The notes beneath the pieces were generated by a model, which saw nothing but the letters and a program-made list of their open reading frames with translations, did no database searches and was not told where the DNA came from. From a virus: a stretch of DNA of 64,000 nucleotides. Positions 31,165 through 57,104 of the stretch are shown here, in pieces. A program made the position numbers and the translations under genes. The DNA lies in the IMG/VR virus record IMGVR_UViG_3300034782_000062, positions 32,001-96,000 of that record; one strand, 5' to 3'. Each line of letters starts with the position of its first letter. The first letter of the stretch is position 1.

Positions 31165-32011
31165 TGTGATCCTCCTTCATGGATTCCATTGCTGCTTCGG
31201 TCTCTGCGAGCATTTCGCCCGCCGTCTTTCCTGTTTTTTCGACGCCTTCGTCGATTTCTCGCTCGGCCATAAGTTTTCTATAGCGAGCGATCGTTTGAAT
31301 GTTTTTCGCGGCGATCGCGGCGATCTGGGGGTTGTTTCCAAGAGGTCGCCAGCCGGTACAAGCCATTACCGGTCGTTCTCGCAGACTGTAAAGGCGACCA
31401 AGTCCTCCGAGGCGCAAACACCACCGGTGCGACTCCATATCTTCTTCGGTCGGCTTTCGAATGATCATTTCGATGAACGACTCGCAGGGACCAAAAGCGC
31501 AGATGCCGAGATTTACCTTCTGGTCAATCTCCAACTGACGTATCTCGGCAAGAACAAGAGAGTTTTGTACGCACGCTCTTCGGATTCTGTCCGGGTCTCC
31601 GTGACCGACCGGCTCGAACGCAGTGCAGCCCTTGATCTCGGCCTCGGTGAGGTCTGTCTGCTCGGCCCAGGTCCGTACTTTCCCACACCACCGTCCAATC
31701 TCGACATTCTGATCGGAGTCGGGCGCTGGCCCCTCAAATACGAGGCTGACGTTTTCTGTGTAGTGTCGACACTCTCCTAGACAGATGAAGTTCTCGATGT
31801 CTACGGCTGGTGGCGGATCGAGAATGCTCTGCTCGCCTTCCAGCTCTGGGAACATAACGAAGCCATCTGCATCGACGGCCATCGTAATTCCAGGAACAAA
31901 GGACTCAGCCTCCATATCGGCTCTTGCATCTGGGTCTCCAGCAGCTCTTTTGGGGTCGTCGCCAAAGATTCCTTCATCATCGTTTTCGTCGAACAGATAT
32001 CCGCCTGGCAT
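31157..32011 (-). CDS. Protein with an internally duplicated Cys-rich domain
   Basis: ICLGEC..Y...WC...C..F.P and ICAFGPC..F...WC...C..W.P. Confidence 0.8.
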   Translation of the reverse strand: MPGGYLFDENDDEGIFGDDPKRAAGDPDARADMEAESFVPGITMAVDADGFVMFPELEGEQSILDPPPAVDIENFICLGECRHYTENVSLVFEGPAPDSDQNVEIGRWCGKVRTWAEQTDLTEAEIKGCTAFEPVGHGDPDRIRRACVQNSLVLAEIRQLEIDQKVNLGICAFGPCESFIEMIIRKPTEEDMESHRWCLRLGGLGRLYSLRERPVMACTGWRPLGNNPQIAAIAAKNIQTIARYRKLMAEREIDEGVEKTGKTAGEMLAETEAAMESMKEDHNG

Positions 32012-48880: not shown

Positions 48881-49484
48881 CATCCCAGCACCGCACGGAT
48901 ACGCCTTCGTGCTCAACAGCAACACCAGAAAGGGATCGCGCTTTCACCTGGCCGACGCGAGCGGTCGTCCCAAGTGCGGAACCAAGGTAGACGTCAGCGC
49001 CTTGGAGCGCGAATGGGAGATACCCGTCAGCTACGACCCCTGCAAAAGGTGTTTCCCGAAAGGAATCAATCCAATGAACGACGCCAATCATATGACTCCA
49101 GAAGAGTTCGACCGGGTCATGCTTCTCTCGTCCAACGGCGAGATTGAGTGTGATGGCATCGTCATCATCCCAACGGACAGGGTCGATCAGTCGGGCTACC
49201 GAATCATGGATTTTGTCGTCACCGTGACGCCGGATCGCAAGCCTGTGGGCCGCATCAGCGAACTCGGCATGAACGCGCACGACGTCTTCGAGCTGACCGA
49301 CATGCGCGGCACTCGGACTCGGTCCATCGGCGACGAGCCGGTACGGCTCCCCGAGTGGAAGTGCGACTGCCTTCAGCGCAGCGGCTTCCTCTATATCACT
49401 CCATCCTGGGGACGGATCAGGGTCAGCCACGACACGGCGACGGTCCACATCCGTCTCATCAGCAACGACGAGGCCCAGAAATGA
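48870..49484 (+). CDS. Hypothetical protein
   Basis: H...CG...C..C in the N-terminal part; coupled to neighbours. Confidence 0.6.
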   Translation: MKSNIPAPHGYAFVLNSNTRKGSRFHLADASGRPKCGTKVDVSALEREWEIPVSYDPCKRCFPKGINPMNDANHMTPEEFDRVMLLSSNGEIECDGIVIIPTDRVDQSGYRIMDFVVTVTPDRKPVGRISELGMNAHDVFELTDMRGTRTRSIGDEPVRLPEWKCDCLQRSGFLYITPSWGRIRVSHDTATVHIRLISNDEAQK

Positions 49485-50311
49485 ACGAGCGCTGCCAGTT
49501 CTGCATCGACCCGAAGTGCGAGGGGCGAAGAGATTGCGATTGCGAGAGCTGCGACAAGCGCGACTGCTGCTACCGCACTCTTCGCCCCACCATTCGGTTA
49601 ACTCTCAAATGCACCCAGAAATGTGGCCACTGCTGCTGGTCCTCATCACCCCAGCAGGATAAGCACATGCCCCCAGAGGTCGCAGAGCTGGTTCACCAGT
49701 TCCTCGACGCAAACCCCATCCACTCGGCGAACATCATGGGCGGCGAGTTCTGGCTCAACCCGGACTGGGAAGAAGTCCTGGGGATGATCGTTGAGGGGCT
49801 CGACTACGCTCGCCTAGTCACAAACGGCGACTGGGCCGCGGACGAACAGTCCTCAAGACAAGTCCTCGAATTCATGGAGTCCCACGAGCACTGCTTCCTC
49901 GCCATCACCACCGACAAGTGGCACACAAACAAACATGTGGTCACGGCAGAAGAGTTCTGCAAGGAGCACAACCTGCTTCACAAGGTCGGAGGCGACGAGA
50001 GCGACATGGGGATCGTTCCGGTCGGGCGCTCTGCGTTCGACATGAGCCTCTTCGGGATGATGGCTTGCTACTGCCACAACCCTGTTAACAAGTATACGTT
50101 CTTAATAGACGAGGACGGCGTCATCTATAAGTGCGCCTTCGGCACCTGGGACTACGATCGCGTCCACAACTTTGTCTCAGGTGGCTTCCCCGAGCGCTTC
50201 AAAGAGTTCAACGAAAAGTTCTACGGGATGTTCGTCGGGAGCTGCTCCCAGTGTCGCCGAGCCTACGCCTTCGGCACCAAAAGGAGCCGCGTTCAAGAGA
50301 TGGTCGGGTAG
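49481..50311 (+). CDS. Radical SAM protein with N-terminal Cys cluster and SPASM/Twitch-like C-terminus
   Basis: CTQKCGHC (CxxxCxxC), MGGE, C-terminal CYC...CAFG...CSQC. Confidence 0.85.
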   Translation: MNERCQFCIDPKCEGRRDCDCESCDKRDCCYRTLRPTIRLTLKCTQKCGHCCWSSSPQQDKHMPPEVAELVHQFLDANPIHSANIMGGEFWLNPDWEEVLGMIVEGLDYARLVTNGDWAADEQSSRQVLEFMESHEHCFLAITTDKWHTNKHVVTAEEFCKEHNLLHKVGGDESDMGIVPVGRSAFDMSLFGMMACYCHNPVNKYTFLIDEDGVIYKCAFGTWDYDRVHNFVSGGFPERFKEFNEKFYGMFVGSCSQCRRAYAFGTKRSRVQEMVG

Positions 50312-50409
50312 CACAGGCGTTCATCCCCAGGACGCCCGTGGGATCGTGACCACCACTAATAAGTCCTGGTCACTCTGAGAAAGTGGCCAGGGCTCCAAGG
50401 AGGCAACAA

Positions 50410-52146
50410 ATGTCCAGAACCATCGTTTTCAATTTTGGAGGCCGTGCACCAACAAAAAACGCACAGCTCGTTCATGACAACATCTACCACGGGCACAACT
50501 ACTACAATAAGCTCATCGAGCTAGAACGTTGTTACCGCAAGGCAATTCGCGCAGCCCAAGCCGAGTTCCCGGAGATCGCAAAAGCTCAGGCACTCTTCGA
50601 TAACGCTGAAGAGGCTGTTGACGGATTGATCGCGCTAAAAAAACTAGCCAAGTCAAGCGACTCAAGTATTACTCCACCAACGCCCGATGAAATGAAAAAG
50701 GCTGTTGCCGAAAAGAAGGCGGCGGCTGCAGCTCTCAAAGACGCCAAGGCCCCTCATGCTGATTCATTGCAAACCAAATACAAGGCAGCCAAGGATGAGC
50801 TAACGGCATCTATAAAAAAGGCTCGATCCGAGACCGAAACTTTCTGGGGAACCTATCTGTGCATCGAGCGAGCGTTTCAGCAAGCCAAGAAAGCAAAGCC
50901 TATTTTTAAGCCTGGCAAAAAGCGCCCCCCATGGACCGAACGGCCAGCGTGGCGAAAATGGACAGGCCATGGTGTTGTTGGCATGCAAATTCAGAATGGG
51001 ATGCCAGCAGAGAACCTGTTCAAACCTAACACGAGATGTTACATAGATCCCCTTCCAGCCAATGCGTACAACACGAACATTCCCCGTGGCCAACGCCGCA
51101 AGATGCAATACACAACCATCCATTTGCGCGTAGGATCTGAAAACAGAAAACCCATATGGGCTGACATCCCCGTTTACCTGCACCGGGGCTTTCCTGCTGG
51201 CGCGATTGTCAAATGGGTATGTGTTATCCGAACCCCATGGCATCAACATCAAGCCTACAAATGGCAGGTACAAATCACTCTTGAGGTCCCCGACGCTTTT
51301 CCAAAAACCAACAAAAAAGCCGTTGCCATTAATTTAGGTTGGCGCAAACTAGCCGATGGATCCCTTCGAGCAGCCACCTGGGTGGATACTGACGGTCAAT
51401 CGGGCGAGATTATTCTAAGCGACAAGGAATTCAGAGATCGTATTGAAAAATACAACAACCTACGATCGATTCGAGACAAACTGATCGATGAAATCCGGCC
51501 TAAGCTCATCATGTCCGGCATCAACTGCGCCAAATGGAAAAGCCCCGACTCTTTTCAAAAACTTTCTCGTCGCGAAGACTTAACCGACGAACAGAGCGCA
51601 ATTTTGAAACCCTGGGCCTACAAAGATAGGCATCTCAATTGGTATGCCCGTGGTGTAAAAAATGGCGCCCTAAACCACCGGCGCGATGTCTATCGAAAGT
51701 TCGCTCTTTACATAGCGACAAACTACGACATCATCATCGCCGAAAAATACGACATGAAGAACATTGTCGAAGACGAAGATCGGAAAAGAGGTCCAGCGGG
51801 TCAGCGGGTTGAAGCTGCCCCATCCATTGCCAGGCAGATCATCGGCAGCACCGCGACACGGCTCGGGTGTCACATTATCGAGGGCCAAACCACATATGCA
51901 ACCCAAGAGTGCTTTTTTTGCGGTTGCACAGAGCCATGGGATGCCTCTGGTAACATCATGCACACCTGCCAGGAATGTGGTGAACATTGGGACCAGGACA
52001 TCAACAATGCCAAGAACATGCTCGCGAGAGCCGCTGATGCAATCAACTCCCTGGACCCGCTCGCACCTAAAAAGTCAAAGAATTACGGATGGAAATCGGT
52101 ACAAGAAAAGAAAAAACAAGGAGATAACGAAGACCACACTGATTAA
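50410..52146 (+). CDS. cas12m: Type V-M-like CRISPR effector (Cas12m-like, TnpB-derived), RuvC-I Asp replaced by Asn
   Basis: 578 aa; HNYYNKLIEL helical/coiled-coil N-terminus, FWGT, VYLHR, AINLGWR (RuvC-I), IIAEK (II), CFFC/CQEC zinc finger, DQDINNA (III); CRISPR array 63 bp downstream. Confidence 0.8.
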   Translation: MSRTIVFNFGGRAPTKNAQLVHDNIYHGHNYYNKLIELERCYRKAIRAAQAEFPEIAKAQALFDNAEEAVDGLIALKKLAKSSDSSITPPTPDEMKKAVAEKKAAAAALKDAKAPHADSLQTKYKAAKDELTASIKKARSETETFWGTYLCIERAFQQAKKAKPIFKPGKKRPPWTERPAWRKWTGHGVVGMQIQNGMPAENLFKPNTRCYIDPLPANAYNTNIPRGQRRKMQYTTIHLRVGSENRKPIWADIPVYLHRGFPAGAIVKWVCVIRTPWHQHQAYKWQVQITLEVPDAFPKTNKKAVAINLGWRKLADGSLRAATWVDTDGQSGEIILSDKEFRDRIEKYNNLRSIRDKLIDEIRPKLIMSGINCAKWKSPDSFQKLSRREDLTDEQSAILKPWAYKDRHLNWYARGVKNGALNHRRDVYRKFALYIATNYDIIIAEKYDMKNIVEDEDRKRGPAGQRVEAAPSIARQIIGSTATRLGCHIIEGQTTYATQECFFCGCTEPWDASGNIMHTCQECGEHWDQDINNAKNMLARAADAINSLDPLAPKKSKNYGWKSVQEKKKQGDNEDHTD

Positions 52147-52209
52147 TCTCGGACCCGCTCGAAAAACGGCATATACTTCAACGAAAAGACAAGGCATTCT
52201 GACAGTGCC

Positions 52210-52922
52210 GTCACAAAGGCTATCTCTACAGCCTATGAGTAGAGACATGTAGACGCTTCGCAAACATTCTGTCCTCAAAGGGGTCACAAAGGCTATCTCT
52301 ACAGCCTATGAGTAGAGACAAGTTAGAATTCTTGATCAAAATGCTTCCATTGTTAAGGTCACAAAGGCTATCTCTACAGCCTATGAGTAGAGACGGATAA
52401 ACAGCATCGTAAACTCCACCCTCTGACAGGTCACAAAGGCTATCTCTACAGCCTATGAGTAGAGACAGGACGAGAGGCCGCTGAGGAGCGAGATGTGCGG
52501 GCACGAGTCACAAAGGCTATCTCTACAGCCTATGAGTAGAGACCGGAGCAAGCCCAGGATGTACTCGTGCTCGAAGGACGAAGTCACAAAGGCCATCTCT
52601 ACGGCCTATGAGTAGAGACATCGGTTGTCTTCCTCTGTAAACGATATTTCCCGTCCTGTCATAAAGGCCATCTCTACGGCCTATGAGTAGAGACACTGTA
52701 GAGTAGGGCAGTCCGGTTCCGTTAGCTACGTCCGTCACAAAGGCTATCTCTACAGCCTATGAGTAGAGACTTGCTCCATTCTGAACCGAACCAAACTTGC
52801 GCCTTGGTTGTCATAAAGGCCATCTCTACGGCCTATGAGTAGAGACAGCCCAACTTCAGCACTGGTTCGAGCCGCCGATAGGTGTGTCATAAAGGCCATC
52901 TCTACGGCCTATAAGTAGAGAC
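52210..52922 (+). CRISPR. CRISPR array, 10 repeats of 37 bp and 9 spacers of 35-40 bp
   Basis: GTCAYAAAGGCYATCTCTACRGCCTATGAGTAGAGAC starting at 52210, 52283, 52358, 52430, 52507, 52583, 52658, 52734, 52810, 52886; the last copy carries an extra G->A, so the leader is at the cas end. Confidence 0.97.
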
Positions 52923-52973
52923 CGATAGAGATACGTCGACGCTGGGGTCACATAACAACACAGGAGGTACAAC

Positions 52974-53639
52974 ATGACCAATGAATTCGAGCGAATACTC
53001 CCCCCCGAGGTTGCCGCCGCCGTCCAAACCGGCAGGGCGTCCCTCATGGGCGGACTCATCCAGAGAATCAAGGATGGCAAGGAACAACTTTCGGCAGAGG
53101 ACCAATCAGAGATACTCGCATTGGTCCAAGACCTCATCAACGAGGGCCAGTCCGACAAGTCCCTCATTGAGGAGTCCGAGGCGCAACTCAAGAACCTCAC
53201 CGAAAACGTCAAGGGCACCCTCAAACTGGTAACGGAGCTGACCGAGCACATGCACCAGCTCAGGCTCTCACCTGACAAGCGCCATCTTCAGGACGACTCG
53301 ATCGAGAAATCCTGCAGGCGCGACCTCGAAGAGCACCACGACAAGATTCTTCGAGCCAAGCTCGTCATGGGCTACCGTGGCAACGACTCCGTCGAGGTCA
53401 CCTGCGACCCCCCGGCGCTCGTCCGGGTGACGCAGAAAGACGACGGCCAGTTCATCAACTGGACGACTCACGATTTCGCGGATCCGAACTGGGACGTCGA
53501 GCTTGTAAAGCCACATCCTGCTCTTGAAGGCGTCCGCTCTCTGTGGGTCGATGGCATCAGCCGATCGAGGACGGGAGAGGTTGAGCACCCCGACTGGGAG
53601 ATCGTTTCCAAGGGCTCGCTCAACGCAGATGTTCCTTGA
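52974..53639 (+). CDS. Hypothetical protein
   Basis: GGAGGT RBS; 221 aa. Confidence 0.75.
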   Translation: MTNEFERILPPEVAAAVQTGRASLMGGLIQRIKDGKEQLSAEDQSEILALVQDLINEGQSDKSLIEESEAQLKNLTENVKGTLKLVTELTEHMHQLRLSPDKRHLQDDSIEKSCRRDLEEHHDKILRAKLVMGYRGNDSVEVTCDPPALVRVTQKDDGQFINWTTHDFADPNWDVELVKPHPALEGVRSLWVDGISRSRTGEVEHPDWEIVSKGSLNADVP

Positions 53640-53689
53640 CTTCTATCGTCCACTCCTCGGCATCAAGTAATTTTTTTCGGTTATCGGGG

Positions 53690-53717
53690 TTGACAGCCCC
53701 CTAGGGGGTGTTATTCT
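53690..53717 (+). promoter_or_regulatory. Sigma70-type promoter with a CCCCC-TA-GGGGG palindrome in its spacer
   Basis: TTGACA - 16 nt - TG-n-TATTCT. Confidence 0.65.
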
Positions 53718-54098
53718 TTCTGTGGGATTTGTAAAAGCCAGTGATGAGGCGATAGAGTCGGTCCCCCCCCATCGACTTTGTCGCCTCATCCATTTAAAAC
53801 GAAGGGAACAAGGTTCGAGGGCTGATACCGGCCCGCCACAACGAAGCGCTTCGTTCAAAAAAAGGACCCATAAGACTCGCGGGGGCGCGTATGCACGCAA
53901 CGCAAACCCTCCCCCCCGACGAAATGGCCAGCGCGCCGGTGTCAGCCTTCGGCCCTTGCCCCCGGAACCTGTCCCCCCAGTGCCCCTCGGTTTGCTGCAG
54001 CCGAGGGGCACACTTTTTAAGGGGTGACCACTTCTGTCATAGTGGAAAGTTAGTATATCCTTACAACATCCACAAAACCGACAGGAGGGAAATTCATC

Positions 54099-55385
54099 AT
54101 GAGGACGAGCGACAGCGCTCTTGAACAGTACGAAGAATGTCCAAGGCAATACGACCTGGAGCGCAACCAGAAAAAGCGTGGGAAGCCAACCGCTCCCATC
54201 CGGCTCGGCAGAGTCGTTCACCGAACAATTCAGAAGCTCCTCAAGAAGTACAAGGAAGCGGGAGAGGCCAAGCCCTTCGACGCTTCACTCGCCTCCGACA
54301 TCTACACCGAGGAATGGGGGAAGGAGCTGGGTCTGAGCGGCAAAGAGCTTTTTACCGACGGACTGCAGATCGTCGCCGACTGGGTTGAGAAGTGGAGCAT
54401 CCCTCTCGACCCCCACTCCATCCTCGGCATCGAGGAGCCCTTCAAGTTCACCATTGAGTATCGTCCCCAGGATGATGAGTATGATGACGAGGAGGAAGAG
54501 GAAGAGACGGCGATCGAGCCCAGCAACCTCATGCCCGTGGAGGTTGTCGGCTACCTAGACCTTGTCCTCGGACACGATCTAGTAGACGAGGAGACGGGCG
54601 AAGTCGAGACTCTCATCGAAGTCATCGATTGGAAGACGACCAAGGCGTTTCTCACGAGCCGGGACGCACAAGAGTCGCTCCAACTCTCCATCTACGATCT
54701 CGCCGCTCGCGAGAAGTGGCCTGACGCCAGGGCCTACCGCGCCGCACTCAATCTGCTGCGTGACGGCACTCACCTTCAGGTTCGCCACAGCACCGCCGAG
54801 CGCCGCGACACCGAACGATACATCCTGGCGACGGCGGCTCAGATACGCGACGAGCGAGAGTGGGCTCCACGGCTCAACTCCAACTGCACCTACTGTCACC
54901 ACCGCCACGACTGCCCCGCCTACCAAAAAGCCCTCAAGGGCGACAGCCACACCGTCGCCGAGGACATGAATGACTTTGACAAGCTCATCGAGGAGCGTGC
55001 TGCGCTTGCAATCCGAAAGAAGATCGTCGGCAAGCGGCTCGACGAAATCGACGACGTCATCAAGGCACACCTCAAATCATCCAAACACCCGCTGGAGATC
55101 GGCGGCTGGTTCTTCAAGCTCTCATCTGTCGAGCGAAAGAACTATCCAGCCGACGTCGTCATCCCACTGCTCGCTCACAAGTTCGACATAAGCCCCGCCG
55201 AGCTGCTCGCCGACCTGACGACTGTCTCCACAAAGAAGCTCAAGGAGCTGATGAAGACCAAAGCCGAAGAGCTTGGGCGCGAGAAGGTCAGCCTCGTACA
55301 AGCCACCCTTGAAAGCAAAGCCGAACGCAACTACTCCTCTCGGCTGTACAACCGAAAGGAGAAGAAGCCCAAACCCAAGAAATAG
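54099..55385 (+). CDS. PD-(D/E)XK exonuclease (RecB/AddB/Cas4-like, four-Cys staple)
   Basis: CPRQY, G..VH, IEEPF, GYLDLV, IDWKT, QLSIY, CTYC....DCP. Confidence 0.9.
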   Translation: MRTSDSALEQYEECPRQYDLERNQKKRGKPTAPIRLGRVVHRTIQKLLKKYKEAGEAKPFDASLASDIYTEEWGKELGLSGKELFTDGLQIVADWVEKWSIPLDPHSILGIEEPFKFTIEYRPQDDEYDDEEEEEETAIEPSNLMPVEVVGYLDLVLGHDLVDEETGEVETLIEVIDWKTTKAFLTSRDAQESLQLSIYDLAAREKWPDARAYRAALNLLRDGTHLQVRHSTAERRDTERYILATAAQIRDEREWAPRLNSNCTYCHHRHDCPAYQKALKGDSHTVAEDMNDFDKLIEERAALAIRKKIVGKRLDEIDDVIKAHLKSSKHPLEIGGWFFKLSSVERKNYPADVVIPLLAHKFDISPAELLADLTTVSTKKLKELMKTKAEELGREKVSLVQATLESKAERNYSSRLYNRKEKKPKPKK

Positions 55386-55394
55386 GAGGAACCA

Positions 55395-55640
55395 TTGTCC
55401 GTCCTGCACCTGAGAAAAACCAACAGTCCTGGCTCGGACCCACCCTCCGTCGATTGGATTGCCACCTTCGACGATAAGACCGGAATTTGTACCTATTGCA
55501 CCACGGCAGAGGGCGAGCCATCCGTTGCCTTTATCGGCAAGCATCGGAGCTTCATCGACCAATGGCTCGACCTCGGAGTCGTCGATGGAATCGCCTATCA
55601 CGAAATCATCGAAGAACTGCCGGAAGTTCCCGGCCAGTAA
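55395..55640 (+). CDS. Small hypothetical protein
   Basis: TTG start after GGAGG. Confidence 0.5.
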   Translation: MSVLHLRKTNSPGSDPPSVDWIATFDDKTGICTYCTTAEGEPSVAFIGKHRSFIDQWLDLGVVDGIAYHEIIEELPEVPGQ

Positions 55641-55709
55641 CACAATTTTCCGCAAAAACACTTAACCCCAAAAGGCGCAGATGCAATACTGCGGAGGAAG
55701 GAGCTTGCC

Positions 55710-57104
55710 ATGAGCGAGCAGTATTCTATCGAGCTGTATCACCACCCGATCGGTGAGGAGCTGGGCTACATCCACCTCGTCATCAACCACCCCGAGGACC
55801 CTGATCTCAAGAGGCTCATCCTCTCCTCGGAAAGAGGCCGAGACTTCGGAGTCATCTTCACAGTCGACATCTTTGTCGACCAATATCTTGAGATGTGCGA
55901 GGAGGAGCAAGTAACCACCCTCGAAGGTTGCGTCTTGGCGACGGCTGGAGACCAAATCGAGATCCGCGAAGTCCCCGAAGACGAGCCGGTTCAGATTCCC
56001 GAGCGCATCGAGTCTCAGGGCAATGTTCGATCGCTGATTACCGACCGCATGTGGACCCATGACTGGGGTCGCTGCTGCTGCGTCAAACGCGGCAACGAGA
56101 TCGAGCCCGTCACGCCTGAGCGCATCGCCGATGGCGAGGTTCCCTGGTGGAATCAGCGTTTCACTCCAATGCAGCTCGACCTCATCGCAGCGGCAACCGA
56201 CCCGGAGAACAAGGCCATGCACTTGATCGCCGGTGACGACACCATCTGCGGCGGCTGCGGTCACTACGTCTGGATTCAGCTTCCCGAGGACGTTCCGAAC
56301 GAGCTTCCCGAGCCTCCCGAAGAGGAGGAAGTCGATGAGCCGCTATGCCCGGAGCGTGACGCCTTGGATGCTGTGGGTTGGAAGAACAAGGCAGCCGCCT
56401 GGGAGGTCTTCTACGATGACCCTCATAACAAGAAGGTCATCGAGGAATCCGGTCTTCCAATCGCTCGTGCTAACGAGCGGCGCCGATTCAGCTCCGAGGA
56501 TGCCTTCGAGCCAGTCAATCTTCGCTCGGACGTGAAGAACAACCTGCACACCGTCAAACAGGTGTTCTACTTTGCGCTCGGCAACACTCGCAGTGGCACC
56601 TGGGCTGAGCTGGACCTCGACATCCTTCGCTCCATCAAGGGGTTGAAGGGCGTCGATATTCCAAATGAAGTCCTGGAGATGGTTGAATTGGACGACGAGG
56701 AGGCCAACGCTGCCATGCACGCACAGTCTGAGAACCGGGCGACCATGGCACACGTCGATGATGAAGCCGACATCCTGGAGTCGATGCTCGACGAGGACGC
56801 CGGTCTTGAAGTTCCTCCAGAGTTCATGGAGGAAGACGAATCGGAGCCGGAGCCCGAGCCCGAGCCCGAGCCCAATCCTGAACCCGAGGTCTTCGAGTCG
56901 AAAGCTCAGAAGCTTCAATCCTCGCCGAAGCCGACAAGCGAGCCAAAAGCTCCAAAGACTCGAAAGTTCACGCGCAAGCAGGCGAAGGCGAACCTTCTCG
57001 AAGCGACAAAGCAGCTTCAGAACGCCCTCGCCGTTTTCTACCAAGTTCTCCTGGATGACGAGGATGAGGATGAGGACGAAGAGTCACAAAAGGTCGGCGG
57101 CTGA
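55710..57104 (+). CDS. Large acidic hypothetical protein
   Basis: 464 aa; AAGGAG RBS. Confidence 0.8.
   Translation: MSEQYSIELYHHPIGEELGYIHLVINHPEDPDLKRLILSSERGRDFGVIFTVDIFVDQYLEMCEEEQVTTLEGCVLATAGDQIEIREVPEDEPVQIPERIESQGNVRSLITDRMWTHDWGRCCCVKRGNEIEPVTPERIADGEVPWWNQRFTPMQLDLIAAATDPENKAMHLIAGDDTICGGCGHYVWIQLPEDVPNELPEPPEEEEVDEPLCPERDALDAVGWKNKAAAWEVFYDDPHNKKVIEESGLPIARANERRRFSSEDAFEPVNLRSDVKNNLHTVKQVFYFALGNTRSGTWAELDLDILRSIKGLKGVDIPNEVLEMVELDDEEANAAMHAQSENRATMAHVDDEADILESMLDEDAGLEVPPEFMEEDESEPEPEPEPEPNPEPEVFESKAQKLQSSPKPTSEPKAPKTRKFTRKQAKANLLEATKQLQNALAVFYQVLLDDEDEDEDEESQKVGG

Follow-up and report, generated by a model that had tools for sequence, protein, structure and literature searches.

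A virus-borne type V-M Cas12m with an Asn-Glu-Asp RuvC site and an adjacent nine-spacer CRISPR array

The viral record IMGVR_UViG_3300034782_000062 of IMG/VR contains a gene for a type V-M effector, cas12m, followed on the same strand by a small CRISPR array. The gene spans 50410–52146 (+ strand) and the array 52210–52922 of the window, which is the whole 64,000-nucleotide (nt) stretch analysed here and corresponds to positions 32,001 to 96,000 of that record. Its 578-amino-acid (aa) product is a type V-M (V-U1) Cas12m by sequence, profile and fold, V-U1 being the old name of V-M. By analogy with the characterised members, this phage-borne Cas12m would probably process the array itself and bind targets flanked by a protospacer-adjacent motif (PAM) without cutting them. 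The cassette is a real and fairly ordinary example of virus-borne Cas12m, a kind that has already been described. An earlier interpretation made from the letters alone, referred to here as the sequence-only reading, had proposed that the virus encodes a Cas12m-like effector accompanied by a stand-alone array; this agrees with the sequence, profile and fold of the protein and with the architecture of the repeat, and the coordinates (50410–52922), length (578 aa) and motifs given there were all correct.

The open reading frame (ORF) of cas12m starts with the ATG at 50410, 7 nt downstream of an AAGGAGG sequence, and stops at 52146; the in-frame GTG at 50383, which would lengthen the product to 587 aa, is the less likely start. 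When the protein was compared with all PDB chains by phmmer, the Cas12m chain 23vw_A matched over residues 5–540 (E 4.2e-54), and full-length matches were obtained with Cas12m2 (8hhl/8hio, E 4e-25) and GoCas12m (8pm4, E 9e-21), while the next families, Fanzor2, LaTranC and Cas12f, matched the C-terminal RuvC/TNB part only, at E 6e-4 or worse. The Cas12u1 model of PADLOC spanned residues 5–542 (E 5.8e-84), and the PADLOC model PDLC01692, labelled “Cas12f”, scored similarly over the same span, which we read as a labelling overlap. Pfam recognised the shared TNB domain only (Cas12f1-like_TNB, E 8e-7, above the cut-off).

The AlphaFold2 model of the protein, built from 88 homologues with a predicted local distance difference test (pLDDT) of 93.3 and a predicted template-modelling score (pTM) of 0.86, has the fold of Cas12m, that is a TnpB-like WED/RuvC/TNB core with a long REC coiled coil. 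In the Foldseek search against PDB, ranks 1–4 were occupied by Cas12m2 and GoCas12m with template-modelling (TM) scores of 0.63–0.69, followed by Cas12f (0.40–0.44) and TnpB (0.41). The long N-terminal helical insertion noticed earlier is present as model helices 18–51, 54–81 and 92–141; this REC coiled-coil insertion covers residues 18–141 (50461–50832, + strand) and has its counterpart in the “Roof” or “sickle” REC insertion of GoCas12m and Cas12m2 (PMC11013384, PMC10442227). Furthermore, the H258-R259 pair aligns with the His-Arg pair by which Cas12m2 recognises the terminal ...AC of its repeat, and H258-R259 is nearly invariant among the homologues. Assignment to type V-F Cas12f, a dimeric and tracrRNA-dependent type of about 400–550 aa, was rejected because of the TM scores of 0.40–0.44 to Cas12f structures and the absence of an anti-repeat. 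On phmmer, PADLOC and fold alike, the protein was placed with Cas12m and not with TnpB associated with insertion sequences (IS), a comparison that the sequence-only reading had proposed. Thus, every feature testable by sequence analysis points to type V-M membership.

The array begins 63 nt past the cas12m stop codon and consists of 10 repeats, each 37 nt long, and 9 spacers of 35–40 nt in the same orientation as the gene, which bears out the earlier count of nine spacers. The repeats start at 52210, 52283, 52358, 52430, 52507, 52583, 52658, 52734, 52810 and 52886 (+ strand); their sequence is GTCACAAAGGCTATCTCTACAGCCTATGAGTAGAGAC and variants of it, ending in ...GTAGAGAC, and in the window the core of the repeat is found 10 times, where chance would give 0.14. 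The array features of type V-M, namely gene-cooriented repeats of about 36 nt and a pseudoknotted 5′ handle ending in ...AC, were all found. The leader that separates the gene from the array (52147–52209, + strand) has no sigma-70-like promoter or terminator, and the cassette of cas12m and array likewise has neither of its own. Within the array, the repeat varies at three places, which are position 5 (unpaired), position 28 (which lies in a loop and differs in the last repeat alone) and the pair 12/21, where both sides change jointly from GGCT..AGCC to GGCC..GGCC in a compensatory manner. The differences being either unpaired or compensatory, they indicated selection on the fold of the CRISPR RNA (crRNA).

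The repeat can form an H-type pseudoknot, in which columns 9–12 pair with 21–24 and columns 14–20 with 30–36, ending one base before the spacer. With the repeats of 17 other arrays found beside Cas12m relatives, 18 of 20 repeats from different arrays fitted this layout while their arm sequences differed. In the repeat alignment, 79.8% of the cells were paired compared with 53% in shuffles, both-sided changes were seen in 10 of the 11 pseudoknot pairs, and the covariation of the pseudoknot was 0.695, as against 0.22 in shuffles (reached in 0/500) and 0.08–0.21 for slid partners. This covarying pseudoknot matches the triplex-pseudoknot crRNA in the GoCas12m structure (PMC11013384). A sequence-level search of the 183-kb record found no complement of the repeat (anti-repeat) of at least 12 nt elsewhere, and thus there is no candidate for a trans-activating crRNA (tracrRNA) in the genome. 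A search for solitary repeat copies in the genome gave 20 loose matches, none of them convincing, where shuffles gave about 10; Rfam matched nothing between 49000 and 54000, and no other array bearing the same repeat was found in IMG/VR.

The sequence-only reading had suggested comparing the nine spacers (S1–S9) with IMG/VR, plasmids and candidate hosts, and no protospacer was found in any collection searched. The whole array gave no blastn match (word 11, E up to 1) in 50,697 INPHARED phage records and 72,556 PLSDB plasmids. The first 20 nt of S1, S2 and S3 had no exact match in IMG/VR, and S4 and S5, with third-codon positions masked, had none in IMG/VR, JGI metagenomes and GTDB genomes. The search for S6–S9 covered the phage and plasmid collections, the virus's own genome and ten Cas12m-bearing IMG/VR records, and in these ten records the spacer matches were at chance level only (E 0.13–0.8). 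The window and the remainder of the genome match the spacers only in part and at chance level, so the earlier statement that the window holds no spacer match is valid for the whole genome. The preprint on the myxophage MV-1 likewise reports no protospacers (bioRxiv 10.64898/2026.09.14.751636).

The composition of the spacers is uneven, ranging from 29% to 68% G+C, with S2 (52320–52357) at 29%, and genomes of very different kinds seem to be their source. In S4 as well as in S5 (52467–52582) there is a reading register whose third positions are 100% G+C, compared with 64% in the virus's own genes; this points to high-G+C coding DNA of a host or another element as their source but proves nothing. 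The sequence was present with zero differences in at least four wetland metagenome runs, and the same spacers were seen in the four runs where these were covered, the contigs breaking inside the array. Because of what is known of viral mini-arrays, rival mobile elements are considered the likeliest targets, which would make the cassette a device of superinfection exclusion, and host genes come second. The programmable repression of host genes or competing elements put forward by the sequence-only reading is a conjecture.

The active site of the protein has the triad N308-E445-D530 (N-E-D). The RuvC-I codon at 51331–51333 (motif VAINLGWR) encodes Asn308 in place of the catalytic Asp, whereas Glu445 of RuvC-II (51742–51744, motif IIIAEKYD) and Asp530 of RuvC-III (51997–51999, motif HWDQDINN), all on the + strand, are kept, exactly as the sequence-only reading had seen. 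The zinc ribbon of the TNB domain (51910–51978, + strand, Pfam Cas12f1-like_TNB) is formed by C501, C504, C520 and C523 (Cys4), the first three of which were invariant in the close-relative alignment. Across the alignment of 88 homologues, the RuvC-I column holds Asp in 45, Asn in 37 and His in 5, and the RuvC-III Asp is present in 81. N308 and D530 do not vary in the 23 closest relatives, and E445 is kept in 90% or more of them. The N-E-D triad is one of the known types of the family, and a passage in Omura et al. (PMC10442227), citing Wu et al. 2022, places it among the triads of Cas12m clades 3 and 4.

A FastTree phylogeny of 241 Cas12m family members placed the protein within a clade of 26 with a support of 1.0. 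Asn is present in all 26 members (24 with N-E-D, two with N-D-D), and D-E-D lineages surround the clade, which indicated that the Asp-to-Asn change arose once and has been kept together with the Glu and Asp. The retention of N308 along with these two residues throughout the clade suggested a selected state and not decay. All nine Asn-clade members with readable surroundings lie within phage-like DNA, and one member adjoins Baseplate_J and sheath-initiator genes.

The tested Cas12m proteins with D-E-D, H-D-D and N-D-D triads all bind PAM-flanked double-stranded DNA (dsDNA) and do not cut it (PMC11013384; bioRxiv 10.64898/2026.03.26.714355), and Cas12m2 did not regain cutting when its H-D-D triad was changed back to D-E-D (PMC10442227). 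By analogy with these proteins we infer, on good grounds, that N-E-D Cas12m is DNase-dead. The description “probably DNase-dead” given by the sequence-only reading is reasonable to that extent, although N-E-D itself is not known to be among the assayed types. On the same analogy, the array would be co-transcribed with the early operon, and Cas12m would trim the transcript into crRNAs of about 50 nt, each with a handle of about 33 nt and a guide of about 17–20 nt. The complex would then bind a PAM-flanked DNA match without dsDNA cutting and block transcription or replication of the target, and the N-E-D site would most likely hold the displaced strand via one metal ion, like the H-D-D site of Cas12m2. 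New spacers, if still gained, would be acquired via host Cas1-Cas2 or by recombination.

Some observations weigh against a phage-borne Cas12m that binds and does not cut. The triads known to have been assayed do not include N-E-D, and Omura et al. suggest that clades 3 and 4 might cut (PMC10442227). The absence of protospacers from every collection searched means that no PAM or target class could be derived. HK97 capsid and Terminase_6N had no Pfam match in the record, and 30 large ORFs gave no structural PHROG except one weak “virion structural protein”; with capsid and terminase unrecognised by Pfam and PHROG, the label “virus” rests on IMG/VR, CheckV and the early genes of phage families. 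A different role, in which the N-E-D enzyme is still a nuclease, was also considered: Glu and Asp, together with the Asn as a metal ligand or with some other residue, would nick or cut DNA or degrade single strands, and the cassette would be a cutting weapon against rival phages. The strong conservation of E445 and D530 along with N308 is in keeping with such an activity, as is the speculation of Omura et al. that clades 3 and 4 may hydrolyse DNA (PMC10442227). In RNase H-fold nucleases, however, an Asp-to-Asn change at the first carboxylate normally abolishes two-metal catalysis, which counts against it. Moreover, every Cas12m assayed so far, D-E-D forms included, failed to cut dsDNA (PMC11013384; 10.64898/2026.03.26.714355), and a D-E-D site restored in Cas12m2 did not bring cutting back (PMC10442227). 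An active nuclease is regarded as improbable. A tentative and rather unlikely extension of the non-cutting role is that N-E-D Cas12m is a lineage confined to phages, in which the Glu and Asp are kept for a job other than DNA cutting, for example to act in a metal-dependent manner on RNA of the polycistronic early transcript that holds the array, and that the virus represses host genes as well as rivals.

The cassette could also be a relic, with a frozen array whose targets are long gone and a protein that is kept for another reason or is drifting. The lack of adaptation genes and of any target in the collections searched, the wide range of spacer G+C, as if the spacers had been gathered in other genomic settings, the foreign composition of cas12m (49.5% G+C against 58%) and the identity of the spacers across all four wetland runs would all fit a relic. 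On the other side, the ORF is intact, the catalytic-site and RNA-binding residues are conserved, and the repeat changes are those expected under selection on the crRNA fold; moreover, missing targets are usual for viral arrays, the one of MV-1 included (bioRxiv 10.64898/2026.09.14.751636). We regard a relic as improbable too. It is hardly credible that the protein is a TnpB of the IS200/IS605 type guided by an omega-RNA, or that it serves a transposon as its guide module in the manner of Cas12k, and does not belong to an interference system. The weak NCBIfam TnpB matches would favour such a role, as would the fact that Pfam sees the shared TNB domain only. The TnpB score (NF040570), however, was 52.6 bits against a cut-off of 100 bits, the TM score to TnpB was 0.41 compared with 0.69 to Cas12m, and a bona fide repeat-spacer array is present. 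The IS200/IS605 assignment was further rejected by the absence of the Y1 transposase (Y1_Tnp) from the record, and that of type V-K Cas12k or CRISPR-associated transposons (CAST) by the absence of the Tn7-like partners TniQ and TnsB, the latter looked for by its rve domain.

The protein and its array resemble the characterised type V-M systems (MmCas12m2, 8hhl/8hio; GoCas12m, 8pm4; and 23vw) in length (about 580–600 aa), domain order, REC coiled coil and zinc-ribbon TNB, and also in the use of a single crRNA with a pseudoknotted repeat ending in ...AC, the lack of a tracrRNA and a non-canonical RuvC-I residue. The solved Cas12m2 and GoCas12m structures are only 22% identical to it. The triad here is N-E-D as against H-D-D in Mm and Go and N-D-D in Pm, the zinc site is Cys4 and not His-Cys3, and unlike the characterised Cas12m the gene is viral and stands in an early operon without promoter signals of its own. 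A parallel in setting, MvCas12m of the myxophage MV-1 (bioRxiv 10.64898/2026.09.14.751636), is also a viral Cas12m with a small array (8 spacers, against 9 here), without cas1, cas2, cas4, tracrRNA or detected protospacers, but it has 610 aa and a D-E-D triad and the present virus is from a wetland habitat. The hypercompact effectors Cas12j (CasPhi) and Cas12l (Cas-lambda) likewise accompany mini-arrays in large phages without an adaptation module; these are active nucleases of other Cas12 lineages, and the TM score of the fold to CasPhi was 0.29–0.31. Virus-encoded effectors that cluster with Cas12m/V-U1 were described in landfill viruses in 2025 (PMC12607003), and Bigelyte et al. mined IMG/VR for Cas12m (PMC11013384). 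Published work therefore already covers Cas12m carried by viruses, and also the absence of a tracrRNA, the helical insertion and the N-E-D triad. The present case adds a well-anatomised example to the growing set of viruses with non-cutting programmable DNA binders, with a phage-associated Asn clade, a movable cassette and comparative proof of the handle pseudoknot as modest additions. For tool builders, it offers a compact Cas12m of 578 aa with a defined 37-nt repeat.

The Cas12m family is large, with 1,202 cluster representatives that reach E 1e-30 or better. In IMG/VR, a scan with the single protein returned nothing and an alignment-based scan was needed, which found Cas12m relatives on 28 records. 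Because of these 28 records, the claim of the MV-1 preprint to the “first” phage Cas12m is not borne out. Many of them measure 100–200 kb, and a completeness of 100% or terminal repeats are seen in several. The array lies just downstream of the gene in most, and the triads include D-E-D, N-E-D, N-D-D, N-G-D and H-P-D. Two of the phages that carry Asn-clade members, L004/L005 and L045, were found to be true relatives of the virus studied here, with flanking proteins 42–73% identical, whereas the Cas12m proteins of these phages and of this virus are 38–45% identical and thus more diverged than their neighbours. The slot of cas12m within the shared early block also differs (49355–57104 of the window, L004:7500–18000 and L045:1–11806). 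Three different slots in three related phages indicated that the cassette moves or is exchanged, and on these comparisons it behaves as a movable accessory module. A PD-(D/E)XK nuclease was considered as a partner of Cas12m and rejected, since the two genes are neighbours only in L004 and L045, both related phages, which is synteny and no general link.

Repeat-like sequences were also seen at unusual places in two of the other phages. In L002, two repeat-like copies (L002:9720–9862) lie 140–280 nt upstream of the cas12m start, besides the downstream array. In L004, where cas12m has no adjoining array, a 1.3-kb stretch located 6.5 kb downstream of the gene (L004:18250–19560) holds about 15 degenerate handle-like units spaced 60–100 nt apart. 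These units are of two kinds, ..CCATCGCAGGGG..TGCGA and GTCATCTCAGCGAC..GCTGAGAC, and the stretch may be a decayed or atypical array.

The whole record has 182,770 bp, and CheckV puts its completeness at 95%. The cassette is part of an early-gene block on the + strand, together with a phrog_8638 AAA ATPase, a PD-(D/E)XK exonuclease, a SNF2-type helicase and a Gp3-like protein. No Cas1, Cas2, Y1 transposase (TnpA), TniQ or rve was found in the whole record, and hence the absence of cas1/cas2 and transposase that had been remarked for the window extends beyond it. Directly upstream of the cas12m ribosome-binding site, a 13-bp hairpin is followed by CCA (50362–50397, + strand), and the RNA fold of 50312–50409 has an energy of −39.7 kcal/mol (z −3.09). 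A tyrosine integrase (phrog_1, E 1e-40) is encoded at 134349–135404 of the genome on the minus strand, and the element may be temperate or integrative. Large ORFs without a Pfam or PHROG match occur in the minus-strand block at 190–32011 of the window (496, 1171, 909 and 304 aa) and, past the window end, at 122578–131872 of the genome, where two giant ones (1617 and 1460 aa) lie side by side. Before the window, at positions 1–24000 of the genome, five or more genes for glycosyltransferases (GT1, GT2 and GT4) follow one another, and a protein with many helix-turn-helix repeats and a methyltransferase fusion are also encoded there, a cargo that is unusual for a virus.

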